Assembly: GCA_964537215.1 (NCBI GenBank)
Contig: CAZIBI010000002.1
Span: 64,001-128,000, forward strand
DNA: 64,000 nucleotides
Source: an uncultured Ignavibacteria bacterium
GTDB taxonomy: Bacteria > Zixibacteria > MSB-5A5 > CAIYYT01
Direction of reading: 5' to 3'
A program made the translations under genes and the position numbers. Positions 1 to 41,549 of this stretch are shown here, piece after piece; position 1 is the first letter of the stretch, and each line of letters opens with the position of its first letter. Under the pieces are notes generated by a model. It saw nothing but the letters and a program-made list of their open reading frames with translations, made no database searches and was not told the DNA's origin.

Positions 1-6
1 CGCAGG

Positions 7-1008
7 TTGTATGAGCACCTATCCGGAGGAGCAACGTTCCACGCTCGCGACACTATTACCCAATTTCAAATCTCAGTGCACTTTCGAAATTGGCTTGATG
101 GAACTCCCGAGGCAGTGAGAGAACTGGAAGCTACAGACGTAGTACTTGGAGATCTTCATAAGTGGCAGGATAGACTGAATATCTCTGTGGATCTGGGTGT
201 TAGTGAAGGAGAGGTAGAAGAACTCCGAGAAACACGAGACCGAATGTATGCTGAAATGAAAGCGATTTTCGAGCGCTGGAGAGACGAGAAAGGGTACACG
301 TTTAAAGATCGGGTACTAGAGGAGGCAACCTCCTTTGGCAGGGCAACGTTTCAGAACTACATCCAATATTTGAAGCGATTTCGTGAAATCCATGCGGGCG
401 TACGCGAGCTTGGTCCCGAAGATGTGTTTCCACCGAGTTCGCAAATGTTGATTTCTTCAATGTTGGAGGAGATGAGGGGGCGAGAGATGACAATAGAAGT
501 GCAAATGCAGAAGCTCAGCGAATATTTTGCGGCTGAAAGTATCCTCGAAATCCCGTTCATCAGAATTTCTTCAATCTTGTATGCATCGATTGCACGCAAG
601 AGTGCTGCAGGGCAAATACGTCCACCGAGCCGAGGTGCATTTACCGACATAAATGCAATCGCAAGCATCTTGCCGTATGTCGACGCTATGTTCGTAGACG
701 ATGAAAATGCTGCTTACCTGAACGAGCGACCGGCATCAGAAATGCTTGGGTACCAGACAAAGATCTTCTCAAATAACACGCGAGAAGAGTTCTTGGCTTA
801 TCTCGAGAAAATCGAAAGGGATGCAGATCCAAAGCAACTTGAACTAGTCCGCGAGATTTATGGAGAATGCGAACCGTATCTAAGTATTTTAGTGGATGAC
901 CGTGCCAAACGAGAGAGTGAACCACCAAAGAAATTGCGACCTTCGATCGAACAAAGCTTAAAGGAGGTAAAACAGCGTCTGCAAAGAGGTGGCGACCAGA
1001 CTCCTTGA
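7..1008 (+). CDS. Hypothetical protein, 5'-partial. The reading frame is open to the window start and the first listed codon is TTG. No recognisable domain.
   Basis: Long ORF of 333 aa with coding-like composition. It lies immediately upstream of direct repeat A and the RloC-like ATPase gene. No motif recognised by eye. Confidence 0.55.
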   Translation: MYEHLSGGATFHARDTITQFQISVHFRNWLDGTPEAVRELEATDVVLGDLHKWQDRLNISVDLGVSEGEVEELRETRDRMYAEMKAIFERWRDEKGYTFKDRVLEEATSFGRATFQNYIQYLKRFREIHAGVRELGPEDVFPPSSQMLISSMLEEMRGREMTIEVQMQKLSEYFAAESILEIPFIRISSILYASIARKSAAGQIRPPSRGAFTDINAIASILPYVDAMFVDDENAAYLNERPASEMLGYQTKIFSNNTREEFLAYLEKIERDADPKQLELVREIYGECEPYLSILVDDRAKRESEPPKKLRPSIEQSLKEVKQRLQRGGDQTP

Positions 1009-1039
1009 AATTTTTCACGCTTGCAATTGGGGTACTCAA

Positions 1040-1250
1040 GTTATCCACAGTTTGTGAGGAATATCGCTACTAATCGACAATTGATCGTTCAACTGGACGT
1101 GGCTATGCTGCATTTACCGCTCAATCAGTTATCCGCGATAATGCGACACTCTCCAGCGTCTGTTTGAACGTGGGTCGACCGGGGTTCAAGAGGTAAAAGG
1201 TTCGAACATCCTTCACCAGGGTGAACCAATGAGTTCCCAAGTATATGTTT
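1040..1250. repeat. Direct repeat A. An imperfect (~85% identical) copy of the 3' end plus downstream region of the serine recombinase gene; partner of repeat B at 3767-3957.
   Basis: Both start gttatccacag..gtgaggaatatcgctac..tcgacaattgatc and both end ...gtttgaacgtgggtcgaccggggtt.a..aggtaaaa.gttcgaacatccttcaccagggtgaacca. Similarity stops sharply after ggtgaacca in both copies. Confidence 0.85.
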
Positions 1251-1260
1251 TTCCTCATTA
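1121..1260 (-). pseudogene. Truncated remnant (C-terminal ~40 codons) of a serine recombinase gene inside repeat A.
   Basis: The minus-strand ORF fragment encodes ...WFTLVKDVRTFYLLNPGRPTFKQTLESVALSRITD. This is near-identical to the C-terminus of the intact 553-aa recombinase (…WFTLVKDVRTFYLLNPGRPTFKQTLEGVALSRLTD). There is no upstream catalytic domain. Confidence 0.6.
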
Positions 1261-1431
1261 CCTGTGGACAACGTATATCCGACGAAATCGGCGATTTTGG
1301 CACGACTTGACATTGACTTTTATGGTGTTTAGTAGCAAGTTGAACATAAGATCGTCAAAGGGAATCGTCTAATGAGCAAATTGACCAAATGCAAGACTCC
1401 ACTTTTCTAATAGGATTGGGCCTACGCACTA

Positions 1432-3729
1432 ATGATTAGAAGGATCAAGAAGATTCGGAATTTGGGATTGGTGTTCTCGAATTACTCTGAGAAAGCTACA
1501 CTCCCAGCCTTCAAGAGATTTAATCTCATTTTCGGATGGAATGGATGTGGGAAGACAACTCTGTCTCGACTCTTCGGTTCGATAAGTGGGGTAGAAAGTT
1601 CGGGCGTGGAGTACCAGCTTGAGGACGATGGCGGTGTTGTTCATAAACATGGCGACCCGTTCCCAACAAAGATTCGTGTATTCAATCAAGATTTCATTCG
1701 TGAAAATCTAAGCTTGATCGAGAGTCGAGCAAAAACGATTTCTCTGATTCTCGGGAAGGAGAATCAGAGCCTATTGAAGCAAATCGAGAAGGACAGGCTG
1801 CTGCTTGAAGGTGACCCCACGAATGGCACGCAAGGCAAATTGTCATTGTTTGCAGCCAGTGAAAAAGAGGTCACACAAGCCGAAAGTGCACGAGCAAATA
1901 CATTCACCGAAGTCGCAAGAACAGTGGGCGCTGCGATCGGTGGTAATGCACTTCGAGATTACAGACGGCCGCAGGCGGAAAGTGATTTCAATGGCATGCC
2001 TGCCAAGGCCGAGCTAACCGCAGTAGAACTGGAAAAGCAATTATTATCAGTCAAACAGCTCTCACTGTCCGAGATTGCAACTCTCTCACTTCCTAAAGTG
2101 TCCTTGTCCGATAAACAAGTCCAACATGAATTGTCTAATTTAGCAGGATTGATCAGTTCAAAGTCCAAAGAACTCCAAAGTCGAACCGTAGATTCTGAGA
2201 TTGTCGAGCGTCTTACTTCGAATCCTGATATTTCGGAGTGGGTCGAAGCCGGGCTGATTTTGCACCAGAAGCACTCGTCAAATAAGTGCGAGTACTGCAT
2301 GCAGCAAGTACCAATAAAGCGATCTGAGGAACTTGCACGCCACTTTAATGAAGCGGACAGACGGTTGAAGGAAGAAGTACGGGAGTCAATATCCGACTTG
2401 ACCAGTTTGCGAGAAGTAGTTGGCTCACTACGAATTCCGGATAAAGCGCGATTCTATACTGCACTTCAGGTTGATTTCCAAGCGAAGGCCAGTGCTTTTG
2501 AACGAGAGAAGACAGCGGCAGTCCGAAGTATTGATTCTTGCACTGAAGAACTAGTTGAAAAACTGAAAAAGACAACTGAATCAGTGATTGCTAAAGAGAA
2601 ACTAGACCTTGAGTCCCTTACAACTACTATTGGTCAGATTAATCTGTCAATTGATGCTCACAATAAGATTACAAACGATTTTGATAGCGTAAGAAATGAA
2701 GCCATCAAGAAATTGAAACAACATTATCTAAGTACAATCTATGATGGTGTAAGACAGCTGGATGGCGAGATCGCGACCAAATCAACATCAAGGGATCAAC
2801 TCAAGGCAGAGATTGATACGTTGAAAGCGAGTATTACTGACAATTTGGCAAAAATGTCATCAACTCAAAAAGCATGTGAAGAAATCAATCAGCGCCTTCG
2901 GACATTCCTTGGACACAGCGAATTGAGTTTTGTCCCACATAACGAGCAACGGACGAAGGACGACGGAACGATGGAAGAAGTAACATCGGGATACGATATT
3001 ATGCGAGGGAACGATCCGGCCACACTGTTGAGCGAAGGCGAAAAGACAGCCGTGGCATTTGCCTATTTTGTCGTCCAGCTCGCTGATCAGGAATTTGATG
3101 TCAGCGAAGGGATCATCGTAATAGATGACCCAATCTCAAGTCTAGATTCAAATTCGTTGTACCAAGCTTTTAGTTTCTTGAAGAACGCGGTCAAGGAGAG
3201 CAAGCAGGTCTTCATACTCACGCACAACTTTGAATTTCTGAAGTTGTTAATTAACTGGCTAAAGGGCGCAAGGGCCGATGCTGGTTACTATATGATAAAG
3301 AATCGCTACCAGGATGGGGTACGAAGTGCATATATCGATGCGATGGATAAAGAACTCTTCGACTATGAATCTGAATATCACTACTTGTTCAAGCTCCTAA
3401 AGCAGCTCAGTCTCGATCAAGACGGCACGCTTGCCAAAGCATATCCAGTTCCGAATATTGCAAGAAAAGTCTGGGAGACATTCTTAATGTTCAGGGTTCC
3501 TAATAGTAAGTCCCAATACATGAAAATGGATGAGTTGAAAAAGGCGGGACTCGATGCAGTTAAGTTGGATTCGATATATAAGTTCACCAATGACCAGTCC
3601 CACATCACTGGATCCGGTTTGAACCCGGCATTGGTTCCACAAGCAACAAAAGTGATCAATGAGATGTTTGAGATGATGGCGGCGGGCGCCCCAGATCATT
3701 TTCGGATTCTTGATGATGCTACGAATTAG
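1432..3729 (+). CDS. AAA_13-family ABC-type ATPase with a coiled-coil insert and CxxC zinc hook. RloC/PrrC-like putative tRNA anticodon nuclease or abortive-infection ATPase.
   Basis: The N-terminus NLGLVFSNYSEK...FKRFNLIFGWNGCGKTTLSRLF carries the Walker A motif. IRVFNQDF is the Q-loop region. A long coiled coil contains HSSNKCEYCMQQV (CxxC). The ABC signature is LSEGEKTAVAFAYF, Walker B is IIVIDDPISSLD and the H-loop is FILTHNFEF. The C-terminal domain has ARKVWE (R-x3-E) followed 42 residues later by NDQSH. Confidence 0.8.
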   Translation: MIRRIKKIRNLGLVFSNYSEKATLPAFKRFNLIFGWNGCGKTTLSRLFGSISGVESSGVEYQLEDDGGVVHKHGDPFPTKIRVFNQDFIRENLSLIESRAKTISLILGKENQSLLKQIEKDRLLLEGDPTNGTQGKLSLFAASEKEVTQAESARANTFTEVARTVGAAIGGNALRDYRRPQAESDFNGMPAKAELTAVELEKQLLSVKQLSLSEIATLSLPKVSLSDKQVQHELSNLAGLISSKSKELQSRTVDSEIVERLTSNPDISEWVEAGLILHQKHSSNKCEYCMQQVPIKRSEELARHFNEADRRLKEEVRESISDLTSLREVVGSLRIPDKARFYTALQVDFQAKASAFEREKTAAVRSIDSCTEELVEKLKKTTESVIAKEKLDLESLTTTIGQINLSIDAHNKITNDFDSVRNEAIKKLKQHYLSTIYDGVRQLDGEIATKSTSRDQLKAEIDTLKASITDNLAKMSSTQKACEEINQRLRTFLGHSELSFVPHNEQRTKDDGTMEEVTSGYDIMRGNDPATLLSEGEKTAVAFAYFVVQLADQEFDVSEGIIVIDDPISSLDSNSLYQAFSFLKNAVKESKQVFILTHNFEFLKLLINWLKGARADAGYYMIKNRYQDGVRSAYIDAMDKELFDYESEYHYLFKLLKQLSLDQDGTLAKAYPVPNIARKVWETFLMFRVPNSKSQYMKMDELKKAGLDAVKLDSIYKFTNDQSHITGSGLNPALVPQATKVINEMFEMMAAGAPDHFRILDDATN

Positions 3730-3766
3730 TCTTCAGAGTTACTTTCACCAGAGGGTAAATTAGAGT

Positions 3767-3957
3767 GGTTATCCACAGGTAGTGAGGAATATCGCTACTT
3801 TTCGACAATTGATCATTTAGATAGACGAGCTACGATGACTTCACCGCTCAATCTGTCAGTCGCGATAATGCAACACCTTCAAGTGTTTGTTTGAACGTGG
3901 GTCGACCGGGGTTTAGCAGGTAAAAAGTTCGAACATCCTTCACCAGGGTGAACCAGC
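3767..3957. repeat. Direct repeat B. It overlaps the last ~110 bp of the serine recombinase coding sequence plus ~80 bp downstream of its stop codon.
   Basis: Alignable to 1040-1250 over ~195 bp at ~85% identity. Confidence 0.85.
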
Positions 3958-5509
3958 TCGAAATTCCAGCCCGGACAGGGGTAGCAACTGCTTTAGGCAA
4001 AGCACGAATCAGTGGTTCGAACTGCAGCTTTTGCACCGCATGAGAGAGAAGCGCGTTCTGGATCAACTTGAACGGTTTTTCCGGCTGAATACTGAGGATA
4101 CCGTCCTTTAGGGAAAGTTTCGAACCGCAGTGCCGGAGTATTGCTCGCTTCTGTTCCAGCGATCCCTGATCAAACTGCTCTTGCGCTCTGGAAGCAAATT
4201 CGAACGCGTCTTCACACGAACGGAAGACGTGGTCAAAACGACTGTCATTGTCTTCAAGCAATTCTTTCAATCGCACCCGCTCCGATTCCAGTTCGTTCTT
4301 TTTCGCCAGATATTCGTCATCACTTAGGATGTTTCGCAATCGCAAGCCGAGCAGTTCGGTGATTTCGAATTGGGAGGCCTCATACCGATGGTGAAGCGCT
4401 TTCAATGCCTTGCTGCCCTTTTCACTTTCCTCATCGTGGAGCTCGCGAAGAACCTCAAGCGTCCAGTCTCGGAGTTTTTTGCTGATGGTTAAGGAGCGCA
4501 GGAAGCTGGAAATTTGCTTTTCAAGCGCGGCACGTTCAATAACTTTTTGAGAGCAGCGGACATTGCGCTTTCGTCGGGTGCAGTGGTAATAGACATACTT
4601 ATATCCATACCGTCGATTCTTCTTGTGCTCAGCCGTGATTGCTGCACCGCACTCGCCGCAGGTAATAAGACCGGTAAAAGCGAACGTGTACTCTTGTGGT
4701 CGAGGCCGGCTGGCCAGCCCGAGGATCTCCTGAACGCGATCAAATTCGGCCTTTGTAATCATTGGCTTCTGCGACCCCGGAAAGAGCTCCTTGTTATATC
4801 GAATCGCTCCGTAGTAAAACGGGTTCGTCAGAATACTGTAGATGGTAGAGTAATGCACGGGTCCGCCGCCGTAACGCGAAAACTGTCGCGTTCGCAGCCC
4901 CAGCTGATTTGTTGCGACTTCCAGCACACCCATTGGGGTATACGTTCCTGTGAGCATGAGATCCCACATCTTGCGAACCAGCAGAAATCGTTCTGGATCA
5001 GGAATGACCGTTCGGGAATTGCGGTCATTCAAATATCCCAAGGGCGGCAAACCAGGCATCCAGCCCGATGCGATCTTGGCGCGAAGTCCGCGCTTCACAT
5101 TGTCTGATAGATCGTCCACATATTTTTTTGCCATCCCAAATTCGAGCTGCATCCAGAACTTATCGTTACCCGTGTTAAGGAAACTTCGTTGCGCCGTATG
5201 GATCGCTTTGAGATGCCCTTCTTCCATTGCCCAGATAAGCGCACCGCCATCGACAGGGTTTCGCGCCAGCCGGTCAAGCTTCCAACAAATGATGCCGTCA
5301 AGATCACCCTTTTGCACTTTACCGATCAGTTGCGTGAACACCGGCCGACCCGGAGCTTTAGCAGATTTCGATTCCGTAAAAACCGCATCAACCGCAAGAC
5401 CCTCCCTCCCGGCGTATTCTTGCAATTCACGAACTTGTGAATCAATCGACAGAACCTGTCTGTCCTCTGATTCACTCGACTTACGTGCGTAGATCGCGAT
5501 TTTCGGCAT
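3848..5509 (-). CDS. Large serine recombinase (resolvase/invertase-type catalytic domain, recombinase domain, zinc ribbon).
   Basis: The N-terminus is MPKIAIYARKSSESEDRQVLSIDSQ with the catalytic Ser. The motif ...WKLDRLARN follows. The central recombinase domain and the C-terminal Cys cluster CGECGAAI...YYHCTRRKR are present. Length is 553 aa. Confidence 0.9.
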   Translation of the reverse strand: MPKIAIYARKSSESEDRQVLSIDSQVRELQEYAGREGLAVDAVFTESKSAKAPGRPVFTQLIGKVQKGDLDGIICWKLDRLARNPVDGGALIWAMEEGHLKAIHTAQRSFLNTGNDKFWMQLEFGMAKKYVDDLSDNVKRGLRAKIASGWMPGLPPLGYLNDRNSRTVIPDPERFLLVRKMWDLMLTGTYTPMGVLEVATNQLGLRTRQFSRYGGGPVHYSTIYSILTNPFYYGAIRYNKELFPGSQKPMITKAEFDRVQEILGLASRPRPQEYTFAFTGLITCGECGAAITAEHKKNRRYGYKYVYYHCTRRKRNVRCSQKVIERAALEKQISSFLRSLTISKKLRDWTLEVLRELHDEESEKGSKALKALHHRYEASQFEITELLGLRLRNILSDDEYLAKKNELESERVRLKELLEDNDSRFDHVFRSCEDAFEFASRAQEQFDQGSLEQKRAILRHCGSKLSLKDGILSIQPEKPFKLIQNALLSHAVQKLQFEPLIRALPKAVATPVRAGISSWFTLVKDVRTFYLLNPGRPTFKQTLEGVALSRLTD

Positions 5510-5769: not shown

Positions 5770-5975
5770 AAAAGTGAGGAATATCACCTAAAAGGAACTT
5801 CGGGGTGTGGATAACCCGAATTGGGTACTATTTCCGAAGATACCGCAAGCTTGTTGGTCCTCTCATTTGAATTGCCAGCGTTCGGTTACTCTTCGGCGGC
5901 GAAACCGGAAATGCATTTTTGCGAACAATTCCTCACTGATGTCCACAGGAGCAAGTTCTTTTCGACAATTGAAGG
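5770..5975. promoter_or_regulatory. Cluster of short motifs shared with repeats A and B, lying in the region between the recombinase start codon and the HTH gene. Candidate recombinase binding or recombination subsites.
   Basis: agtgaggaatatc at ~5773-5785. tgtggataacc (inverted copy of ggttatccaca) at ~5806-5816. attcctcac (inverted gtgaggaat) at ~5929. tccacagg plus cttttcgacaattga at ~5942-5974. The same tccacag..ttttcgacaattga arrangement occurs at 1043-1084 and 3771-3813. Confidence 0.4.
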
Positions 5976-6018
5976 GGTTTTGTCATGGGATTACGCTAAT
6001 TTTGCACTCTTAAAACCC

Positions 6019-6297
6019 ATGCTACGTCCCATAAACAACCGCGTTCCGAACAGTATCCGATATTACCGGCGTCGTGCCAATATGCGGCTCTTTGAGTTGG
6101 CACACTACGTCGGAATTTCGAGTCCGGCAAACCTGGCGAATTGGGAAATGGGCAGGAAGATGCCATCAGCCGACAATCTACTGAAACTCTCCGCGGTGCT
6201 CATGGTGCCGCCGGAAATTCTCTTTCTCGGTCGCCTGAAACAACTCCGTGAACAAATCAAAGCTCGCAAAGATCAACCAATAAAGAAACCACTATGA
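6019..6297 (+). CDS. XRE-family helix-turn-helix DNA-binding protein.
   Basis: IRYYRRRANMRLFELAHYVGISSPANLANWEMGRKMPSADNLLKLSAVLMV fits the XRE HTH pattern. The stop codon overlaps the start of the next ORF (ctATGAgc). Confidence 0.6.
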   Translation: MLRPINNRVPNSIRYYRRRANMRLFELAHYVGISSPANLANWEMGRKMPSADNLLKLSAVLMVPPEILFLGRLKQLREQIKARKDQPIKKPL

Positions 6298-6551
6298 GCA
6301 CGAATCTCCCGATTCCATTCGTTCCGAAAAGTGCTGCAGATGCCCTGGCGCTCCAGATCGCGCAGTCGTTCGATGACGAAGAGCGATTGCCTATTTATCG
6401 GCGTGCGTGTGCCACTCATAATCAGAGTGTGGTGTATCGAGCTTATCGTGAGGCTCTACAGGTGCCGGCAGAGAAGGTGCGGAAATCGCGACGAGCCATT
6501 TTCTTCTTCATCCTGCACACCTATGAAGACGAAAATAGTGCTCGGCATTGA
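6294..6551 (+). CDS. Small hypothetical protein (85 aa), translationally coupled to the HTH and RuvC-like genes.
   Basis: ORF overlaps both neighbours (ATGA overlap upstream, ~29-bp overlap downstream). No recognisable motif. Confidence 0.4.
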   Translation: MSTNLPIPFVPKSAADALALQIAQSFDDEERLPIYRRACATHNQSVVYRAYREALQVPAEKVRKSRRAIFFFILHTYEDENSARH

Positions 6552-7047
6552 CTATGGTACGCGTGAATTTGGCTACGCCACTTTCCACGATGGCCGACTG
6601 CAGGATTGGAATGTCAAGTCGTTGCGCCGGACATTACCTCGACGAGATCGACTCATTGTCCTCCGACACGCATTCACAAGATTATTAATTGATACCCAGC
6701 CAGGGGTGATGGCAATGACAAGACACGAAACTGCCCACAACGACAAGCTGCAGATTATGCCAAAAGTCGACAGGATTATGAAATCCATCGCTGCCGAGCG
6801 CAGCATAGCAATTCATCAGTTTGACCCGGTGACTGTCAAGAAAGCTGTTACCGGCGACTCCAAAGCGACGAAGCGTATGGAAGCCAAGGGGGTTGTCGCA
6901 CTCTTTCCGGAAGTCCGGCTGTATCTCAACGAGGCAGGCTGGCAAGAGCGCTACTTGCAGAGAATGTTCGGGGCGATTGCTGCCGGATCCACCTATTTCG
7001 CTCTCTTCGAGAACCCGCCAGACCATGAGCAACCTAACCAACAGTAA
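6523..7047 (+). CDS. RuvC-like (RNase H-fold) Holliday-junction resolvase family protein.
   Basis: KIVLGIDYGTREFGYATFHDGRLQ resembles the RuvC N-terminus ILGIDPGSRVTGYGV. LIDTQPGVMAMTRHE resembles the FQPDYFAIEQVF segment carrying the catalytic Glu. AVTGDSKATKRMEAKGVVALF resembles [20 protein letters not shown]. The C-terminal acidic pair is not clearly conserved. Confidence 0.5.
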   Translation: MKTKIVLGIDYGTREFGYATFHDGRLQDWNVKSLRRTLPRRDRLIVLRHAFTRLLIDTQPGVMAMTRHETAHNDKLQIMPKVDRIMKSIAAERSIAIHQFDPVTVKKAVTGDSKATKRMEAKGVVALFPEVRLYLNEAGWQERYLQRMFGAIAAGSTYFALFENPPDHEQPNQQ

Positions 7048-8023
7048 GCGGACGCGGACAACACGGCGGCCGGTTGCAATTACGATTCGCGATCGGGCAA
7101 TGCTACTTGCACTAATTGAATTTCGCGTGCTTTCGACAGAGCAGATTCGTTGGTTGTTCTTTCCTTCAATCCATCGCACGCGGAAACGACTGTACTTGCT
7201 GTGGCGCCACGGTTTCCTTCGACGAGCTACTCGCCCGACCCGAATTGGGGAAGGGTCGGCGCAATTCCTGTACGCGCTTTCGGCCAAAGGGCGGCGACTC
7301 GTTGGCGACCAGAGCCTGCGACTCCGGCCGCAGTTGACCGATCCAAAGAAATTCAGTGAACATAGCCAGCTTATCAACAACCTCCATATTTGTCTGTTGC
7401 TCGTCGAACGTGCCGCCGATGACTTTTCCGTCCGGCGGTGGGAGCAAGGCGCAAAGCTCAAAATGTTCGTCACGGCGATATCTGCGGCCATTTCAACGAC
7501 ATTGCCGATTATTCCAGATGCAATGTTTATCCTAACCTGCAGAGGCCGGGATTATTGTTTTTTCGCGGAAGTTGATCGCGGTCAAACCGACCTCAATCGA
7601 ATCGCAAGCAAATGCACCGGCTATTCATCGTTGTGGCGGCAGAAGTTACCACAACGTCAATTTGGCGTCCGGTCGTTTCGTGTACTTTACCTGACAACTG
7701 GCGGAAAGCGGCTTGTCCATATCCTCGAAAAGATCCGGGTGCAACTACGAAACTCTTCTTGCCCGGACTTGATCGCCGGTGTGAGCGGTAATGCCGTTTC
7801 GCTCCAAGAACCTGAAAGGCTCTTTTCGATGGCATGGCGGACAGTTGCCCTTTCAGGAGACATTGTTTCGAGCTGTCCGCTGCCAAGCCCTTCCTTTGTC
7901 CGCTCCCGCCAGCGCCTTGAACACCACTTGTGCGCTGACCAGAATCCTGATGCTAGCTGTAAGGAGACTCCGGGCTCGGTGGATGAGGGCAGCCCTCGTC
8001 TGCCGGGTAGCGGGAGCGGATAG
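7025..8023 (+). CDS. Replication-relaxation (Replic_Relax, PF13814-like) family protein, paralog 1.
   Basis: RDRAMLLALIEFRVLSTEQIRWLFFPSIHRTRKRLYLLWRHGFLRR is a typical winged-helix N-terminus of this family. The start overlaps the RuvC-like gene end. Chosen start is M45 of the listed ORF. Confidence 0.6.
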   Translation: MSNLTNSKRTRTTRRPVAITIRDRAMLLALIEFRVLSTEQIRWLFFPSIHRTRKRLYLLWRHGFLRRATRPTRIGEGSAQFLYALSAKGRRLVGDQSLRLRPQLTDPKKFSEHSQLINNLHICLLLVERAADDFSVRRWEQGAKLKMFVTAISAAISTTLPIIPDAMFILTCRGRDYCFFAEVDRGQTDLNRIASKCTGYSSLWRQKLPQRQFGVRSFRVLYLTTGGKRLVHILEKIRVQLRNSSCPDLIAGVSGNAVSLQEPERLFSMAWRTVALSGDIVSSCPLPSPSFVRSRQRLEHHLCADQNPDASCKETPGSVDEGSPRLPGSGSG

Positions 8024-8261
8024 GTGAAGATCGGATGGAAGTCTGTTTTTGTTTGTGGTGCCGTCGGCAACAAGTGCTATTCGACGGCCTGAATGCGCGC
8101 GTTCGTCGGTCGGCTGCGCTTCACGCCATGCTTCCGGTGGGGTCGTGGTTGGCAGGGAGTGCAAACCACGACGAAAAAGTAGCCGGGAAATAATCTCTAT
8201 TTCCCTTCTACTTTTTTCGGGGTGTAACCCCTTGTCCCACCTCCAGCATGTCGTTCGCTTT

Positions 8262-8510
8262 GCCTCCCGACTCCACCATTTTTCCCGAGTCCTTTCTTCC
8301 TGCGCTTGGCGTCATTATATTGTGGGTGCGCCAAGCGCTGGAGCTTGGAAAGGACTCGGCTTTGCCGGTCGGCTCGGAAGCCGACATCGCCGCCGCTTAG
8401 CTTTTTGGTGGGTGCGGCGGCTCGGCGTCGGTCGGCGGCCATCCAACGGAGTTGGTCGTTTTAGCGGAGCCGTTGTCTGGCCTTGACGAAAAATGGTGGA
8501 GTCGGGAGGC
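8262..8510. repeat. Nested inverted repeats (large imperfect palindrome/cruciform) in a GC-rich intergenic region.
   Basis: Outer perfect 23-bp inverted repeat: gcctcccgactccaccatttttc (~8262-8284) and gaaaaatggtggagtcgggaggc (~8488-8510). Inner 12-bp inverted repeat: ccgagtcctttc (~8285-8296) and gaaaggactcgg (~8348-8359). Innermost 10-bp inverted repeat: gcgcttggcg (~8302-8311) and cgccaagcgc (~8329-8338), with the AT-rich loop tcattatattgtgggtg. Two further hairpins lie inside: gtcggct-cgga-agccgac (~8368-8388) and gccgccgc...gcggcggc (~8390-8430). Confidence 0.8.
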
Positions 8511-8622
8511 ATCGCGTGGCTATCACCCCGCCGTTGCGGCGAGGTTCCCGCGCCCCCTGCTCGTTGCCGACCCGGGGCGCGGAGCCACGCGGCCTCCGAC
8601 GAACGCGCGCAGAGAAAGACAG

Positions 8623-9771
8623 ATGAGGGAAGAGGACAGTTTGAAAGACCTACCGCTAAAGAGAAAACTGAAGGCATTCCGACCGAACGGACGCGATCGT
8701 TCGATCCTGCAGTATGTCGCCGACTATCGGTTCATGAGCATTGAGTTGCTCGCGGCGTTGATCGTTGCGCCGCCGGTACCGGGACGCACGTATGGATTCA
8801 GCGAATCGGCGCTCCGGGCACGATGTCAAAAGCTTCGAGATAATGACTTTCTTAACTGGCAATTTTTGCATGACTTGCCTACAGGTCGGGGTTTGCATAC
8901 CGAGCGACCAGCGGTGTACTCCATTGGTCCGGCGGCGCTCGATCTCTTAGAAGAAGAATTCGGCTTCAGCCGCGAGCAACTCAAGCAGTCGCTCGAGAAG
9001 AACAAACTGAGCTCAATGTTTCTCCGCCATTTCCTGATGATCAGCAAGTTCCATGTTTGCTTGGAACTGGCGTGCCGTCAAACCGCCAACGGCGGTATTG
9101 ATGCCGGCGTCGCCGGAGATCTCTCCGGTATGACGGTTGAAATTGGCACTTGGCTACAGGACGGACTGGTTGACCGCGTTCGTGTTACAGTCGGCGACGT
9201 AGTCGAGACGATACCGGTGGTGCCGGATGCTGTTTTCAATCTGGTCATTCGCAAATCAGACGGCTCGGTTACGGTGAAACATTTTGCGCTCGAGGCGGAC
9301 AGGGGGACGATGCCGATGCGGAGCATTACGAAGAAAGCAACTGGCTATTGGCAGTACATCCGGCGGGGATTGCAAAAACGCCGATATACATACTATGGAG
9401 AACATGGCGCGGGACCGGAATTGCGGGTTGTCAATCCGAACTTGAAATGGGATGCGATTCCAAAGGGCGAGCAAGAGAACATTCTGCGATACGGGATCGA
9501 TGATCTAACAGTCTTATTTGTCACCCGTGGGGAATCGCCTGACGTGAAGTCCCTGAAGGAGAAGTCCCAGCTCACACGCAAGCGCCAGAGCAGTATCCTT
9601 GAGGCGGTAAGACGGGTAGAAGGTATCGATCCATCTTCCGACACGTTCGTCTTTTGTACTGAAGGATTGGATTTCGATGTAAAAAGCGCGGCAGCGTTAT
9701 TCGAATCGATTTGGCAATCGTGTCGTGAAGAGCCCCTCAGATCGAAGTTGATACCAACCCGTGCGGAGTGA
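8623..9771 (+). CDS. Replication-relaxation (Replic_Relax-like) family protein, paralog 2.
   Basis: RDRSILQYVADYRFMSIELLAALIV...FLNWQFLH parallels the N-terminus of paralog 1. The listed ORF starts at 8452 inside the palindrome, so the internal Met (MREEDSLKDL) is chosen as start. Confidence 0.55.
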   Translation: MREEDSLKDLPLKRKLKAFRPNGRDRSILQYVADYRFMSIELLAALIVAPPVPGRTYGFSESALRARCQKLRDNDFLNWQFLHDLPTGRGLHTERPAVYSIGPAALDLLEEEFGFSREQLKQSLEKNKLSSMFLRHFLMISKFHVCLELACRQTANGGIDAGVAGDLSGMTVEIGTWLQDGLVDRVRVTVGDVVETIPVVPDAVFNLVIRKSDGSVTVKHFALEADRGTMPMRSITKKATGYWQYIRRGLQKRRYTYYGEHGAGPELRVVNPNLKWDAIPKGEQENILRYGIDDLTVLFVTRGESPDVKSLKEKSQLTRKRQSSILEAVRRVEGIDPSSDTFVFCTEGLDFDVKSAAALFESIWQSCREEPLRSKLIPTRAE

Positions 9772-9858
9772 TCTCAAGTCATCCAAACCCGGTCGCAAAT
9801 TTTTGTGAAAACAATCACGTGAATCCTAAAAAAAATTGACAACATTTGTCGATTCTTC

Positions 9859-9887
9859 TTGCTTTTCTTGGAAACTGGGATTATCAT
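9859..9887 (+). promoter_or_regulatory. Candidate sigma70-like promoter (ttgctt -35, 17 nt spacer, tatcat -10).
   Basis: Sequence inspection only. It lies in a 0.75 kb ORF-free region. A second candidate (ttgaca at 10082-10087, taatta -10) follows the terminator. Confidence 0.25.
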
Positions 9888-9894
9888 CGCATAC

Positions 9895-10072
9895 GTGGTA
9901 ACCGGCACTAGCTCAGAGCTCAAATCGGCGCGTTCGTTGCGCCCCGAGGAGGGTTGATCTGGTGTTCAGAGGAGATTAACCACAAACAGAGGAGGAATTA
10001 CGATCCTCTCTAGCGCTTTTCGCTCATTATTACTTTGATTGGTCGCGGCCGGGAAACTGGCCGCTTTTTTTA
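9895..10072 (+). ncRNA. Candidate small transcript (~180 nt) running from the promoter-like element to an intrinsic terminator. Function unknown.
   Basis: No ORF is listed in 9772-10519. The terminator at 10045-10072 is clear. Internal complementarity exists (gaggagg...cctctc). Confidence 0.2.
10045..10072 (+). terminator. Rho-independent terminator.
   Basis: gcggccgg-gaaa-ctggccgc stem followed by ttttttt. Confidence 0.65.
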
Positions 10073-10223
10073 TGAAATGTCTTGACAAGACCGTCAATCC
10101 AACGCTAATTAAAGCAACCAATCAAAGTAATCTCGTGGATTTCCCACACATCCTTTAAGTATGTCCAATTGTTACGCGCGGTTTTCATGCTTTCCGTGTG
10201 CGGTTTTGAAGAAAACCATCCAT

Positions 10224-10274
10224 AAAAAAGCACCCCGACTAGAGAATGCTTTGCACACAAGGCTCCAGTCGGGG
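10224..10274 (-). terminator. Possible minus-strand intrinsic terminator.
   Basis: The hairpin ccccgact ...(27 nt)... agtcgggg is followed by a T-run on the minus strand (the plus strand has aaaaaag upstream). The large loop makes this uncertain. Confidence 0.3.
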
Positions 10275-10655
10275 CTCACAGCAGAACGCTGCTTAATCGG
10301 TTAAGATAGCTGTTTTATTTTTCATGTCCACATGAATTTTAGAACAGGCTGTTTTTGCCGTCAAGCCTGCCGATCTGCGCTTCGTCCACCAAATAGGGCG
10401 AGGCATTCCTCAGTGACACAGCATCCATAGGAGTCAGCAATGCTTCGCTGCAATATGGATATCTATATCGAGGCCGCAATTCCGCTAATCGAAGCTGCAA
10501 TTGTGGTGGTGCCGTCGGATTGGACTGCTTTAGGTCCAGCGAAGGTCGCGTTCTGTTGCTTGTTGACGATCTACATCTTGTCTCGCCGCCGTCAACAGTA
10601 GCAGTTGTCCATCGATTTCTGAATTTGAAACGGATAATTTTGGAGGAAATAACAA

Positions 10656-10876
10656 TGTCTCACAGAGACGACTATGATGACGGATTTGATGACGGTATCG
10701 CTGCCGCCATCATTGGGGGCCTGGCTATTTATGGGGCGTTTAAGATTGTCGAAAAACTCAGGGAAACCCCTGAGCAGCGGCTGCTGAACAACCTTGGTCG
10801 TGATCTCAAGCAGCTTGATTCCGGAGTGTATGACGGGTATGACGACGATGAGGAGGACGAGGATGAGGCCGAGTAA
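10656..10876 (+). CDS. Small acidic membrane protein (73 aa).
   Basis: A good RBS (ttggaggaaataacaATG) is present. It has one hydrophobic helix, AAAIIGGLAIYGAFKIV, and an acidic tail, DDDEEDEDEAE. Confidence 0.4.
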
Positions 10877-11315
10877 GGTTCTCCGTATCGCTCACGAAGT
10901 TTTGGCTATCCGTCGGAAGATCGTTACTTCCCATATTGAGAATCGAAACCGCGTGGCTCTGCAACGATCCGAGATGGAAGTCCAGCTTAACAAGCAAAGA
11001 CTTGAATCCGCCCAATATCGGTTTGGTGTTATCGAACTACTTGCAAAGGTCAAGCAGATGACGCCACCGGCGCCAATCGATCCGGTGGAAGAAATCCAGC
11101 AGCGCGAACGCCGTGTCATGGCGGATTTGTCCGCCAAGGCGAACATTCGCGCCGCCGCCGAGAAGGCACTTCGTGATCAGGCTGCTCAAGCCGCATTTGA
11201 CCGCGCCGACTTCATCGCTCAGGTGAAGCGTGACTTGCCAGAGGAATCTTGGGCGGAGATCATCGACGACTATGACCGCCGCGTGTATGAAAGCACACAA
11301 GAGGAGACGTCGTGA
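10863..11315 (+). CDS. Coiled-coil hypothetical protein (~150 aa).
   Basis: ORF overlaps the previous stop. The sequence is heptad-like and charged. No domain recognised. Confidence 0.35.
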   Translation: MRPSKVLRIAHEVLAIRRKIVTSHIENRNRVALQRSEMEVQLNKQRLESAQYRFGVIELLAKVKQMTPPAPIDPVEEIQQRERRVMADLSAKANIRAAAEKALRDQAAQAAFDRADFIAQVKRDLPEESWAEIIDDYDRRVYESTQEETS

Positions 11316-11650
11316 CGCCGTTTTGTATTGGCGTGGATCGCAACACAGGACGCAGCGTAACGCTGCGTCCAGATGTTCTCTTCGCGCACGGCTTGATAGC
11401 GGGCGGAACAGGCATGGGGAAGAGCCAGCTTGCAAACGCTCTCTGCCGCCATTGTCTGCACGCGGGCATTCCGTTTGTCTATCTTGATCCTCATGGCGAC
11501 ACCTACCACGACCTTGTTGCCTATGCCACTGCCCGTCGGGTCCAGAACCGCCTTGTGACGATTGACGCCAATCTGGCGGCGGATACGTTTGTATTTCCAC
11601 TAAATTTCTGCTGCCGAATGGCTTGGATTCGGCAACGCAGGGAGCGATGA
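11312..11650 (+). CDS. N-terminal fragment (Walker A part) of an FtsK/HerA/TraD-like P-loop ATPase (type IV coupling-protein-like). It is split from the next ORF by an apparent frameshift.
   Basis: GGTGMGKSQLANAL carries the Walker A motif, followed by FVYLDPHGD. The frame ends at 11650 while the next frame opens at ~11604. Confidence 0.5.
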   Translation: MTPFCIGVDRNTGRSVTLRPDVLFAHGLIAGGTGMGKSQLANALCRHCLHAGIPFVYLDPHGDTYHDLVAYATARRVQNRLVTIDANLAADTFVFPLNFCCRMAWIRQRRER

Positions 11651-13092
11651 TCATGAAAGCAATGGCAAAAGTATTTGGCGAACAGGACGCGGAAACGAAG
11701 CCGCGTCTCGAACGCCGTGGGCGGGACACGTTCATTGCCTTGATCGAAGCAGGATTGACGCTTGCCGAAATGCTCGACTTCCTCTCCATCGATGACGATC
11801 GTTTTCGTAAGCACGTGCTTGGCCGAGTTTCGAATCCGTATGTTCGCGCTGAGTGGCAGGAATTTGACTCCATTGCAAGGCGATCAGACCGCGAAGCAAT
11901 GCTCGAGTCGACACTCAATCGCGCCGCCAAAGTCATTCTCAGTGATGCAATCCGACGCGTCTTTGGGACAGCAACGAATAATCTCGATTGGGAGAAAGTT
12001 CGGCGCGAGAATTTGGCGGTAGTTGTCAATCTCCAGCCGCAAAAAGTTGCAAGAGAAGCCCAGCAACTGCTCGGTACAATGCTGCTAGATCACTTGGCGA
12101 ACTACGCCATGCAGCAGACGAAAAGGGAGAATAAGATGTTTGTCATCGCTGACGAAATGGACGAATTGGCTAGTCCCGACTTCGCCTTGATGTTCCAAGC
12201 GTTTCGAAAGCGAGGCATTTTCTGCTGGCCGCTACTGCAGTATTTACAGCAACTGCGTTCGCGTGACGAGTCAAATCGTCTCTACGCGGCCGCAATGACG
12301 TGTTCGGACGTCAAGGTCGTCTTCCGTACATCGTACGAGGATGCGGCGCTTCTGGCGCGCGAACTTTTTCCCGGAGCATTCCGGGGCGACATTGTTAAGG
12401 ACGAGTTATTTCGGACACTGCTTTTGCCTAAGGAGTCGCAGCGTACTGTCGTTGGCTCGTCGGAAAGCGAAAGTGAATCGACGAGTGAGAGTGAGAGCGT
12501 TTCCGAGTTCGAAGGCACCGGCGTTGGCAGCACCAATGTCGACGGTATCGCCAGCGCCGAAGGTCAGACTTTCGGCGGTATGTACGGTGACGTTCTGCAA
12601 TCGTCCGAGCTATCAAGCCTGAACAGTGTTTCCGGTGCCTCCTCCTCATCGATGTCAGGTTCGACTCGATCTTCTTCAACCACCCGCAGTCATTCACGCG
12701 GCCACTCCCGGTCCAAGGCAGTTGTTCCGTTCTATGAATATGAACACGCCAAAGAGTTGGGTGGACGGCAGTATTTCAGTGTCGAAGAGGAATTGGAAAA
12801 GCGAATCTATGCTATCCAAAGCCAGGTGCGGCGCGAAGCGATCCTGAAAGTAGGAAACGCACCGGCAATTCACATTCTCACAACGTTCATCAAGCCGGTG
12901 CGCATTCGACCGCAGGATCTGCAGAGAACATTCGACCTGCTCGCGCGGAAATATGCACTGCCGGTTGAAGTCGTCGATGCCGCGATTGCGGAACGTCGGC
13001 GGCTTGCAGTTTCGACATCGGCGGGTGATATCGGCGTCGACAACAAGCAGATTGTCGCCTATCTCTTCAAACCGCAAAGGAGGAAACGATGA
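11623..13092 (+). CDS. C-terminal part of the FtsK/HerA/TraD-like ATPase (Walker B region) with a Ser/Glu-rich low-complexity tail.
   Basis: MFVIADEMDELAS is the Walker B DExx motif. The low-complexity segment SSESESESTSESESVSE...SSSSMSGSTRSSSTTRSHSRGHSRSK follows. Confidence 0.55.
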   Translation: MDSATQGAMIMKAMAKVFGEQDAETKPRLERRGRDTFIALIEAGLTLAEMLDFLSIDDDRFRKHVLGRVSNPYVRAEWQEFDSIARRSDREAMLESTLNRAAKVILSDAIRRVFGTATNNLDWEKVRRENLAVVVNLQPQKVAREAQQLLGTMLLDHLANYAMQQTKRENKMFVIADEMDELASPDFALMFQAFRKRGIFCWPLLQYLQQLRSRDESNRLYAAAMTCSDVKVVFRTSYEDAALLARELFPGAFRGDIVKDELFRTLLLPKESQRTVVGSSESESESTSESESVSEFEGTGVGSTNVDGIASAEGQTFGGMYGDVLQSSELSSLNSVSGASSSSMSGSTRSSSTTRSHSRGHSRSKAVVPFYEYEHAKELGGRQYFSVEEELEKRIYAIQSQVRREAILKVGNAPAIHILTTFIKPVRIRPQDLQRTFDLLARKYALPVEVVDAAIAERRRLAVSTSAGDIGVDNKQIVAYLFKPQRRKR

Positions 13093-13277
13093 AACGGGAA
13101 CGCGAATTTTTGAGTAAACGGGAAGTCGCTGAGATGTTGAATTTGAGCATCTTTACAATCGATTCTTGGGTTTCGCAACGGCGCGAAATACCATTTATCA
13201 AGATGGGAAGGAACGTCAGGTTTGACATTCGAGATGTCCGAGCCTGGCTAGAGAAGCGGAAGTTCAACCCCGAGTAA
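13089..13277 (+). CDS. Excisionase/AlpA-like helix-turn-helix protein (Xis-like).
   Basis: LSKREVAEMLNLSIFTIDSWVSQRREIPFIKMGRNVRFDIRDVRAWL fits the MerR/Xis-type HTH pattern. A strong RBS (aggagg) is present and the gene sits immediately upstream of the integrase. Confidence 0.65.
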   Translation: MKREREFLSKREVAEMLNLSIFTIDSWVSQRREIPFIKMGRNVRFDIRDVRAWLEKRKFNPE

Positions 13278-13349
13278 TGCGTTTTGGACGACGCCGGTCG
13301 GAATATCATTGCTGACCGGCGTTTTTTTGTGCTTATTGGCAAGAATTGG

Positions 13350-14465: not shown

Positions 14466-14497
14466 CACACGTACCGGTTCGATTCCGGTCTCCGGCA
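14412..14497 (+). tRNA. tRNA-Leu (anticodon UAA), type II with a long variable arm. No encoded CCA.
   Basis: Manual fold: acceptor GCCGGAG/CTCCGGC. D-arm GCG-AAATTGGTAGA-CGC. Anticodon arm AGGGA-CTTAAAA-TCCCT. Variable arm GTGTG-gtga-CACAC. T-arm ACCGG-TTCGATT-CCGGT. Discriminator A. Confidence 0.9.
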
Positions 14498-14537
14498 TAT
14501 TGTAAATGGGACAAATCTAGATTGCTGAATTGGGAGA

Positions 14538-41134: not shown

Positions 41135-41549
41135 TTCCGTTCTGCTTTTGGTTTTTGTGCGGCTATCGCTTCATCGGTCTCTTACAGCGTCCGCGACCAT
41201 CTGCAGAAAATAGAACACTGGTCGCAAATTCCACAAAAAACAGGAGTGCGAAAGCCGTTAGAATTTGTAAAAAATCCTGATAAAGTGTACTCGCATTATC
41301 GAGAATAAAATGCTTGTGTCAACTACTAAGATTGTTCACTTTCTGGGCAATCTCAAGAAACGCACAGCCGCGAGTTGGTTGCTGCGGATACTGGCTGATT
41401 TTATGCAAGATAACATCTGTTCTAACAATAAGTTAAGCGCGAGGGAATAACGATTCGATTGGTATGCGCTTTGCAATGGAAGTTAGTCGGTAATCTGCCG
41501 ATTACTCTAATTGGCAAGCTCCGAGGTGCTTAACATTCGAGATCGGAAT

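Follow-up and report, generated by a model that had tools for sequence, protein, structure and literature searches.

RloC, a single-gene system of the defence catalogues (COG4694; AAA_13, PF13166), is defined by the motif Arg-X3-Glu-X36-52-His, in which a Ser often precedes the His (PMC2610378). Mutagenesis of the G. kaustophilus protein addressed R692, E696 and H737 together with C291, the Cys of its hook (PMC2610378). The Walker residues of the same protein are Lys44 (A) and Asp572 (B), its activation depends on DNA and ATP, and it is promiscuous in vitro. In vivo, RloC is activated by inducers of double-strand breaks, even in a host deficient in restriction-modification (R-M). All the RloCs studied by experiment, those of G. 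kaustophilus and A. baylyi, cut tRNA; protection against phages has been proposed in the RloC literature, where no demonstration of it was found for any RloC. The C-terminal domain of RloC has been ascribed to the HEPN fold (Anantharaman et al. 2013).

The gene described here lies in a window of 64 kb, the whole stretch of DNA that was analysed. Its product is very likely an RloC-family anticodon nuclease, acting as a single-protein effector of abortive infection or stress, acquired as a 2.7-kb module in the 3' end of a serine recombinase gene. The sole unusual feature of the locus is the position of rloC, on a 2.7-kb insert with exact junctions in the tail of the recombinase gene of a mobile element.

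Architecture and conservation of the protein

The open reading frame at 1432-3729 is intact and encodes a typical RloC-family protein, as seen in its motifs and their conservation, in homology to a listed RloC over the full length and in the architecture predicted for it. Its features are as follows.

1432-3729, plus strand: rloC-family gene, 765 aa, ATG start (open reading frame, AAA_13, PDC-S06, RloC orthologue alignment)
1534-1560, plus strand: Walker A/P-loop GWNGCGKTT, aa 35-43, with Lys41 (motif scan and conservation)
2287-2298, plus strand: CEYC, aa 286-289, candidate zinc hook with Cys286 and Cys289 (motif scan and conservation)
3028-3147, plus strand: from LSEGEK (aa 533-538) to the Walker B/D-loop IVIDDPISSLD (aa 562-572) (motifs, conservation)
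3223-3225, plus strand: switch (linchpin) His598 of THN (aa 597-599), invariant among homologues
3349-3726, plus strand: C-terminal domain, aa ~640-765, helical throughout and holding the candidate catalytic triad (secondary structure, pLDDT)
3463-3465, plus strand: candidate Arg678, invariant
3475-3477, plus strand: candidate Glu682, at a position always Asp or Glu
3598-3603, plus strand: Ser723-His724, the His invariant and the Ser nearly so

The predicted order of domains is an ABC ATPase head, split by a helical insert with the zinc hook, and then a C-terminal HEPN-like nuclease domain. The initial annotation had proposed an AAA_13-type ABC head, and all four of the motifs it named (GWNGCGKTT, LSEGEK, IVIDDPISSLD and THN) are where it had placed them; the Pfam profile AAA_13 (PF13166) is matched over positions 8-712 of 713 (E = 1.5e-122, 411 bits, the cut-off being 36). 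The PADLOC model PDLC04894, for PDC-S06, aligned its positions 1-737 of 740 with residues 1-763 of the protein (E = 3.8e-223, 741 bits). PDC-S06 is a 'candidate' class in PADLOC, and the literature that mentions it gives no test of it. On this evidence PDC-S06 covers the RloC/AAA_13 family: the full-length match is the same, and the difference is that the label is a computational one without an attached mechanism. The PADLOC profile for PrrC was also matched (E = 2.8e-14), though it aligned to the ABC part alone (residues 525-660) and did not reach the C-terminal domain, and in NCBIfam there was no specific model for the protein, just generic ABC transporter matches under the cut-off. Homologues at E ≤ 1e-5 numbered 332, the closest in the database at 59% identity, and names such as 'wobble nucleotide-excising tRNase' (JGI/NCBI) and 'Translation-disabling ACNase RloC' occur among them.

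The bridge to the characterised RloCs is the protein of Cupriavidus (Ralstonia) metallidurans CH34, YP_587691, the one listed orthologue that was aligned; the CH34 open reading frame has exactly 792 aa, in agreement with YP_587691 in the table of RloC orthologues (Table S1, PMC2610378). BLASTP aligned it to residues 2-757 at 30% identity (E = 3e-97), the characterised RloCs being far more distant than the nearest database homologue. The Walker A Lys, the CxxC, the signature, the Walker B, the switch His, and the Arg, Glu and Ser-His of the C-terminal domain fall in the same columns of both proteins, CEYC being aligned with CLFC.

Conservation was analysed in 109 homologues of 41-59% identity, with the acidic position tallied in 34 sequences. 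The Walker A residues G40, K41 and T42 are invariant in the 109 sequences, and so are both hook cysteines, C286 and C289, whose conservation in orthologues had been at issue; E287, S534, E537, D565, D566, D572 and His598 are also invariant among the homologues. In the C-terminal domain ARKVWE (aa 677-682) is followed by NDQSH (aa 720-724), and His724 lies 42 residues after Glu682, as originally observed. The resulting R678-x3-E682-x41-S723-H724 fits the published Arg-X3-Glu-X36-52-His rule (PMC2610378). Arg678 and His724 do not vary, Ser723 hardly does, and position 682 is acidic throughout (Glu in 12 and Asp in 22 of the 34 sequences), the spacing from acid to His ranging from 39 to 43 residues. 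The Arg, Glu and His proposed as a triad thus occupy positions homologous to those of RloC, and the motifs, the conservation and the full-length RloC alignment together support, at the level of sequence, the original view of the protein as an RloC-like candidate anticodon nuclease.

AlphaFold produced a confident model (mean pLDDT 84.6), with an ABC head, a helical insert carrying the CxxC in a turn, and an all-helical C-terminal domain. The insert (~112-493), between Walker A and the signature, had been read as a coiled coil of ~350 aa with CEYC; the insert and its CEYC are present, whereas the model suggests ~380 aa folded as roughly ten helices and not as two continuous ones. CEYC, the only CxxC of the 765-aa protein, is placed by the model about halfway along the insert, where a short turn links helix 265-281 to helix 295-304. 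Foldseek matched the whole protein to SMC/Rad50 heads, Rad50 and SMC heads being also the best matches among solved structures by sequence as well as by fold, and for the C-terminal domain the top matches were HEPN proteins, at TM scores of 0.45-0.55 that were not significant (E 0.3-5).

The predominance of Asp over Glu at the triad acid (22 of 34 subfamily sequences, as against the Glu of characterised RloC and PrrC) would also suit an RloC-like ATPase-HEPN protein with another RNase target, mRNA or rRNA, or with a HEPN-like domain that binds RNA without catalysis, in which case the label 'anticodon nuclease' would be wrong. The window protein itself, however, has Glu at position 682. HEPN domains do comprise mRNases and non-catalytic forms (PMC3710099), but the Arg, the acidic residue and the Ser-His are kept here at RloC spacing. 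Substrate specificity is unreadable from sequence, identity to the aligned orthologue is just ~30%, and the G. kaustophilus enzyme is promiscuous in vitro; against this, both RloCs that have been studied by experiment cleave tRNA. Another target, or none, is accordingly an unlikely reading.

As an RloC-family anticodon nuclease, the protein would, by analogy with the RloC literature, bind zinc, be activated by DNA, cleave tRNA and exert an anti-phage effect. It would dimerise through the Rad50-like ABC head, by analogy with the G. kaustophilus and A. baylyi proteins, with helical arms ending in the Cys286-x-x-Cys289 hook, and zinc bound at that hook would restrain the C-terminal HEPN-like RNase. 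DNA ends arising from damage or from an attacking phage would, once bound, lift the restraint in conjunction with ATP hydrolysis. The Arg678/Glu682/His724 site would then cleave tRNA anticodon loops with excision of the wobble nucleotide, and translation would be shut off. Such action would proceed without the need of a linked R-M system.

Neighbours of rloC and the host element

No hsd, mod or res gene was found in the window, either with eight R-M proteins as tblastn queries or among the open reading frames scanned with Pfam and PADLOC, in agreement with the initial annotation, which had however treated the missing R-M partner as notable. It is unremarkable, because absence is the rule for RloC: R-M loci hold 8 of the 72 rloC genes in the founding paper (PMC2610378), and a type I or type III gene lies within 10 kb in 19 of the 80 rloC-homologue loci analysed here. 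Orthologues at 51-54% identity do lie in type I R-M operons (locus L086). In another locus, L090, a Fic gene accompanies an R-M operon whose final gene overlaps the rloC homologue by 4 nt, a neighbourhood described for RloC-like proteins (PMC3710099). Promoter and terminator scans of positions 1000-4000 gave nothing above background. The neighbouring features are the following.

1-1008, plus strand: 3' two-thirds of the gene for a SEC-C-motif/Zn-ribbon protein, complete at 497 aa (P0121, 100% identical)
3848-5509, minus strand: large serine recombinase of 553 aa, its gene convergent with rloC (Resolvase, Recombinase and Zn_ribbon_recom)
5821-14498: backbone of an integrative/mobilisable element (Pfam, tRNA scan)
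5821-6297: HTH_3 (Pfam)
6331-7047: RuvC-like (Pfam)
6893-8023 and 8452-9771: two Replic_Relax genes (Pfam)
11623-13092: TraG-like (Pfam)
13284-14465: tyrosine integrase (Pfam)
14411-14498: tRNA-Leu(TAA) (tRNA search)

The 333-aa upstream open reading frame, formerly an unknown neighbour with no recognisable domain, corresponds to the C-terminal 333 residues of the 497-aa protein, cut by the edge of the window; the missing N-terminus holds a SEC-C motif and a CxxC...CxxC ribbon. It was considered as a partner of RloC and rejected as a resident gene of the element, since the SEC-C protein is present without rloC in elements L083 and L084 (52% identical in the latter) and absent from the 80 rloC-homologue loci.

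The backbone is common to L083, L089, L091 and L092, and relatives of the 553-aa serine recombinase adjoin varied defence cargo, rloC being located at the edge of the defence-cargo region of the integrative element. The TraG-like and Replic_Relax genes of this element, the conjugative character of 163 of the 244 plasmids with relatives, and the structural matches to Rad50 and SMC heads could be taken to indicate a Rad50/SbcC-like ATPase that serves DNA repair, plasmid maintenance or conjugation and has no role in defence. Nevertheless, an Mre11/SbcD-type partner is absent next to rloC, and the conserved C-terminal R/E/H domain does not belong to Rad50/SbcC. Moreover, rloC is dispensable for the element, because L083 keeps the entire backbone without it, and it occupies a variable cargo position outside that backbone. 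An ATPase of this kind is therefore highly improbable.

The 2.7-kb insertion in the recombinase tail

Element L083, a proxy ~97% identical to the window's element, has an empty site without rloC, and its comparison with the window defines the features below.

1229-3955: 2,727-nt insertion relative to L083, in which rloC is preceded by a 203-nt leader and followed by a surrogate recombinase 3' end (blastn breakpoints, base-level junctions)
1040-1228: copy A, the displaced and orphaned original recombinase tail, consisting of the final 36 codons with 81 nt of 3' flank (direct repeat)
3768-3955: copy C, the surrogate recombinase tail from the insertion, fused in frame to the recombinase body (direct repeat)
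1212-1225: perfect 6-2-6 palindrome TTCACC-AG-GGTGAA at the left junction, candidate crossover site (repeat alignment)
3939-3952: the same palindrome at the right junction (repeat alignment)
1251-1272, minus strand: 22-nt motif GTTATCCACAGGTAGTGAGGAA, inverted third copy in the cassette leader (motif scan)

The flanks of the insertion are 95-99% identical to L083 (97.6% for window positions 1-1228), and its GC content is 44.2% against 52.9% in the backbone. The earlier description of the gene as recombinase-flanked is accurate on the right, where the large serine recombinase is intact; on the left there is just the 36-codon remnant of copy A (1121-1228), which in L083 is joined to the recombinase body and which tblastn aligned at 89% identity over 37 aa. 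Copies A and C share ~85% nucleotide identity, with two conservative changes in 36 aa and 11 of the 14 coding differences synonymous. Neither copy is a hybrid, A being parental and C foreign from end to end, and therefore the crossover is placed at the extreme end of the homology.

All six copies of the repeat, from three elements, carry the palindrome unchanged, and each time the homology stops 3 nt beyond it. In the sibling element L089 another two displaced tails end at the same base beside the palindrome, so that three displaced tails in two elements share the exact end base (...GGTGAACCA), besides the occupied/empty polymorphism between the window and L083. The two displaced copies of L089 have an identical 23-nt distal arm, which is unlike the arm that follows the junction in the window copy.

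The 22-nt motif occurs in direct orientation at 1040-1061 and 3768-3789, which with the inverted copy gives three matches where none is expected by chance. It was rejected as a widespread recombination site: one match was found in the JGI metagenome contigs, in an unrelated intergenic region by trpG/pknB-type genes, which is about the chance expectation for roughly 10^12 bases (the collection size being estimated), and none in viral contigs. Inversion of the rloC segment between the motif copies at 1251 and 3768 found no support: no contig with the inverted order was seen, and L081 has the same orientation as the window. The motif begins with the DnaA-box consensus TTATCCACA.

A unit made of the recombinase and the backbone was also considered as the inserting DNA and discarded, the right half-site not being repeated at the other end of the backbone; no repeat of the tRNA-Leu was found in window positions 1-14 kb. 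Tail arrays are absent from L001, L084, L090, L091 and L092, and L086 has an unrelated 236-nt repeat alone.

Two origins can be proposed for this arrangement. The rather more probable one is that the 2.7-kb indel and the tail repeats are leftovers of homologous or illegitimate recombination, for example tandem accretion and deletions, the RloC module not being itself mobile. Arrays were found in just two element lineages, that of the window and L081 and that of L089; no displaced tails occur within 10 kb in relatives whose recombinases are 64-66% identical, no circular form was seen, and ~190 nt of shared homology is not normal for the att sites of serine recombinases. The difference between the post-junction arm of the window copy and those of L089 points in the same direction; the 23-nt distal arm common to both L089 copies, however, does not. 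Neither do the three independent displaced copies that end at exactly one base, 3 nt past an invariant perfect palindrome, nor the wholly parental and wholly foreign character of copies A and C. These observations would rather suit a second origin, which we put forward tentatively: the rloC module may be a recombinase-less cassette, captured site-specifically in the last 36 codons of the recombinase gene, each arriving cassette supplying a surrogate tail and pushing the preceding tail and older cargo outward. Defence modules would in this way accumulate as an ordered array beside the recombinase gene, on an integron-like platform operated by a serine recombinase whose target is its own gene.

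Significance and comparison with known systems

The gene adds one more well-preserved member of RloC, from an uncultured Gram-negative bacterium, and changes little for the family; the labels PDC-S06 (PADLOC) and 'AAA family ATPase' (NCBI) hide a family with a published mechanism. The near-identical occupied/empty pair of the window and L083 indicates that rloC was gained here as a 2.7-kb unit, independently of the type I R-M operons that house the 51-54% identical orthologues. A candidate mechanism also emerges for the piling up of defence genes beside a serine recombinase gene. The cassette-capture context of rloC is possibly novel; capture as a cassette, if true, would provide a simple pair of att sites and a new cassette platform with which to study and engineer the assembly of defence islands.

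The protein agrees with RloC in having an ABC head, a CxxC helical insert and a C-terminal R-x3-E-x41-SH domain in that order, and is nearly colinear with the G. kaustophilus enzyme (K41/C286/D565/R678/E682/H724 against K44/C291/D572/R692/E696/H737). Also as in RloC, an R-M neighbour is absent, as it usually is, and resolvases, integrases and plasmid genes are frequent neighbours. It differs in length (765 aa against 804) and in the triad acid, which in its subfamily is more often Asp than Glu. With PrrC of E. coli (prr/EcoprrI) it shares the ABC N-domain and a putative C-terminal Arg/Glu/His nuclease domain, PrrC shutting off translation by tRNA cleavage. PrrC, however, has no coiled-coil/zinc-hook insert and at ~400 aa is about half the size of the present protein with its ~380-aa insert; it is kept silent by the type Ic hsd locus in which it is always found, while the window has no hsd gene, and it nicks the anticodon loop without excision of the wobble base. 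Rad50, SbcC and SMC proteins likewise have a long helical insert with a CxxC hook within the ABC head, but no C-terminal nuclease domain, relying on a separate Mre11/SbcD nuclease that is missing here.

For the cassette context the comparison systems are SCCmec-type and tRNA-targeting islands, tycheposons, ICE/CIME accretion and integron cassette arrays. The window element, whose architecture is known from two element lineages alone, differs from these systems in that the target is the recombinase gene itself and the inserted unit has no recombinase of its own, and from integrons in its use of a large serine recombinase and not a tyrosine integrase. In common with them, repeated 3' ends of the target gene separate the cargo modules, a surrogate 3' end comes with the inserted DNA, the latest module to arrive is adjacent to the intact gene, and the cargo at the site varies between closely related elements.

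The element and the rloC insertion

The first ~14,500 nt of the window are part of an integrative or mobilisable element that carries, besides a large serine recombinase, HTH_3, RuvC-like, two Replic_Relax and TraG-like proteins and a tyrosine integrase.

Landmarks of the element (window coordinates)
3848-5509, minus strand: large serine recombinase
14411-14498: tRNA-Leu(TAA), the element's end

In window 13284-14498, the tyrosine integrase ORF shares 55 nt with the 5' part of the tRNA-Leu(TAA) gene, on whose 5' side the island is situated. No partial tRNA repeat is present in window 1-14 kb, so the other island end lies outside the window. The remainder of the window is occupied by the Gram-negative host's cluster for polysaccharide synthesis; within this region, 41511-47237 encodes a protein of 1,908 aa, unrelated to rloC, that bears fibronectin-III, Ig-like and F5/8 type C domains.

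The initial annotation described rloC as lying in a recombinase-flanked cassette. This holds for the right side, where the recombinase is located, but the left side bears an orphaned recombinase tail instead of a second recombinase. The gene is enclosed by a direct repeat of ~190 nt (1040-1228 and 3768-3955), whose copies are about 85% identical. On the right it comprises the recombinase's last 36 codons and about 80 nt of 3' flank; on the left stands an orphaned version of this tail and flank. The same element without rloC was found in another sample, on the 16-kb contig L083, which is 97.6% identical to window 1-1228 and 95-99% identical from 3956 on. In L083 the recombinase body runs straight into a tail of the left-hand type (L083 7195-7383); the window hence has an insertion of 2,727 nt at 1229-3955, in which a 203-nt leader and rloC are followed by a surrogate tail that is foreign (85%). 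The surrogate tail restores the recombinase reading frame with two amino acid changes, both conservative, and 11 of the 14 coding differences are synonymous. The GC content is 44% in the insertion versus 53% in the backbone.

Two backbone stretches, one within the first Replic_Relax gene (7367-7766) and one in the terminal part of the second (9366-9728), share 68-87% identity with L083, the backbone otherwise showing 93-99%; the alignment suggests local recombination or diversifying change. A 22-nt motif, GTTATCCACAGGTAGTGAGGAA, starting with the DnaA-box consensus TTATCCACA, occurs three times (1040-1061, plus; 1251-1272, minus; 3768-3789, plus) where chance predicts none. Its inverted copy is in the rloC leader, so that rloC sits between inverted copies, and the motif may act as an operator, as an inversion site or as a site for an accessory factor.

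A recurrent site for defence cargo

The sibling element L089 has the same backbone, a 92%-identical recombinase and other cargo, with two further displaced tails delimiting one SMODS/LexA-like and one AbiEii module. In the window and in L089 alike, the recombinase 3' end recurs as a direct repeat separating cargo modules.

Recombinase tails in L089
~10510-11015
~14320-14815
~18370-18610

Two conserved blocks are common to all six tail copies from three elements, and homology stops at one same base in 6/6, directly after CATCCTTCACCAGGGTGAACCA. The boundary is placed 3 nt past an invariant perfect palindrome, TTCACC-AG-GGTGAA; a crossover site of a serine recombinase would be laid out in this way, and the palindrome is a candidate for one. 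The two displaced L089 tails share the same 23-nt distal arm.

Four elements (L084, L090, L091 and L092) with recombinases 53-66% identical to the window's hold cargo at the same position, with no displaced tails within 10 kb.

Defence cargo of related elements
L091 12007-16825: SIR2 and DUF87/HerA-like
L092 12896-16356: Gabija-like (AAA_15/TOPRIM and UvrD)
L089 11055-16814: SMODS and AbiEii
L084 5464-9768: SAVED/HNH
L090: SMODS/SLATT and restriction-modification (R-M) plus RloC

Since related elements carry different defence systems there, the position past the 3' end of the recombinase gene is clearly a hotspot for defence cargo, in an element family spread over Zixibacteria, Patescibacteria and other uncultured lineages. 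Cargo may enter by recombinase-mediated cassette capture, which is rather doubtful, or, more probably, by recombination between related elements. It is the context, that is, the occupied/empty pair and the tail-repeat arrays beside the serine recombinase gene, that merits follow-up.

In L086, an unrelated element with type I R-M genes and an RloC homologue, a serine recombinase that is shorter than, and distinct from, the window's is closely followed by a 236-nt direct repeat (12135-12370 and 14834-15069, 93.6% identical) around a three-gene module, possibly a comparable arrangement.

Genes neighbouring rloC

As initially noted, no R-M genes were found in the 64-kb window. A solitary rloC is not anomalous, since few rloC genes reside in R-M loci: 8 of 72 in the published set (PMC2610378) and, here, at least 19 of 80 reference-genome loci, in which a gene of type I/III kind lies no more than 10 kb from the rloC homologue. 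Orthologues of the same subfamily do occur in the classic R-M arrangement. HsdM/HsdS/HsdR and a YgjP-like gene stand immediately upstream of the homologue in L086; a methylase and a GmrSD-type enzyme precede it in L085, on a T4SS element; and in L090 the end of a Fic, HsdR-like and methylase/specificity operon overlaps it by 4 nt, a Fic/R-M/RloC neighbourhood described in 2013 (PMC3710099). Ahead of its SEC-C gene, about 4 kb upstream of the window-start equivalent, L083 (2-4464) contains a Type III Res-like C-terminal part (helicase region and RE_endonuc) and a full-length defence gene, Ppl (PHP plus ABC ATPase). This defence cluster is probably also present in the DNA that precedes the window.

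The neighbour first read as a 333-aa domainless protein proved to be the last 333 residues of P0121, a 497-aa protein cut by the window edge, whose N-terminus bears a SEC-C motif and a CxxC...CxxC ribbon. These features, together with a ~400-aa domain of no assigned name, characterise an unnamed conserved family of ~360-500 aa whose genes, in several related elements, converge on the serine recombinase gene.

Members of the SEC-C family
window 1-1008: P0121
L083 5670-7163
L084 10001-11467: 52% identical to P0121

As a partner of RloC this protein was rejected: it is present in 0/80 rloC-homologue loci, and it adjoins the recombinase in L083 and L084, both without rloC.

The RloC protein

The rloC ORF (1432-3729, plus strand, ATG start) encodes 765 aa and contains every motif quoted at the outset, including the 42-residue spacing from Glu682 to His724.

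Motifs of the RloC protein (residues)
35-43: Walker A, GWNGCGKTT
286-289: CEYC, the sole CxxC
533-538: ABC signature, LSEGEK
562-572: Walker B, IVIDDPISSLD
597-599: THN
677-682: ARKVWE
720-724: NDQSH

This pattern is not due to chance, given the matches to AAA_13 (PF13166; E = 1.5e-122, profile positions 8-712 of 713) and, end to end, to the PADLOC candidate-defence model PDC-S06 (E = 3.8e-223); no specific model was matched in the NCBIfam profile search. The public gene call P0001 (753 aa) omits the first 12 codons (window 1432-1467); its start is too late, because the N-terminus MIxKIxKIxNLG (strand MIRRIKKIRNLG) is conserved among homologues.

RloC is defined by ABC ATPase motifs in common with PrrC, by a CxxC zinc hook in a coiled-coil insert, giving a Rad50-like head, and by a C-terminal Arg-X3-Glu-X36-52-His motif in which Ser often precedes the His (PMC2610378; PMC3458546). 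Among 34 and later 109 homologues (41-59% identity), no variation is seen at K41, C286, E287, C289, D565, D566, H598, R678, K679 or H724; S723 is almost invariant and residue 682 is acidic throughout, with 39-43 residues between acid and His. A listed orthologue is YP_587691 (792 aa) of Ralstonia (Cupriavidus) metallidurans CH34 (PMC2610378, Table S1). At the tblastn match, the CH34 chromid has an ORF of exactly 792 aa, which aligns with residues 2-757 (BLASTP, 30% identity, E = 3e-97) and places Walker A, CxxC (CLFC), signature, Walker B, THN, Arg-x3-Glu and Ser-His in the same columns. Closer homologues are already labelled 'wobble nucleotide-excising tRNase' (JGI) or 'Translation-disabling ACNase RloC'. 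The proposed RloC/PrrC-like identity is upheld; the gene is a member of the RloC family, known since 2008 and already annotated by several resources.

An AlphaFold model (109-sequence alignment, mean pLDDT 84.6) predicts an ABC head, a helical insert (~residues 112-493), a beta-hairpin and an all-helical C-domain (640-764). In the model, the CxxC occupies a short turn that separates helices 265-281 and 295-304, R678 and E682 share one helix, and S723-H724 lie in a loop. Solved structures resembling the whole model are cohesin, condensin and Rad50 heads and retron-complex SMC-like ATPases; by sequence, Rad50 and AriA alone are matched, weakly, and no RloC or PrrC structure was among the PDB matches listed. 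For the C-domain modelled separately (pLDDT 86.5, pTM 0.82) the top matches are the HEPN proteins 7ae6, 2hsb, 1wwp, 8xeh and 1o3u (TM 0.45-0.55, probability at most 0.95, non-significant E-values). The predicted fold agrees with the HEPN assignment of the RloC C-domain (Anantharaman et al. 2013), without proving it.

Comparison with characterised RloC

The experimentally important residues of the 804-aa G. kaustophilus RloC are K44, C291, D572, R692, E696 and H737 (PMC2610378; PMC3458546). Their counterparts here (K41, C286, D565, R678, E682 and S723-H724) are nearly colinear with the published positions, and the Glu682-x41-His spacing is inside the range published for RloC. Since all experimentally identified residues are present and conserved, this protein probably shares the mechanism of characterised RloC, the main caveat being substrate specificity. 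By analogy with the published scheme (PMC2610378; PMC3458546), dimers would be kept inactive via intramolecular zinc-hook joints, DNA ends and ATP hydrolysis would switch on the C-terminal RNase, and excision of the tRNA wobble nucleotide would stop translation. [quoted passage not shown] While characterised RloC and PrrC use Glu as the triad acid, Asp is the commoner residue in the subfamily described here (22 of 34 aligned homologues, the other 12 having Glu).
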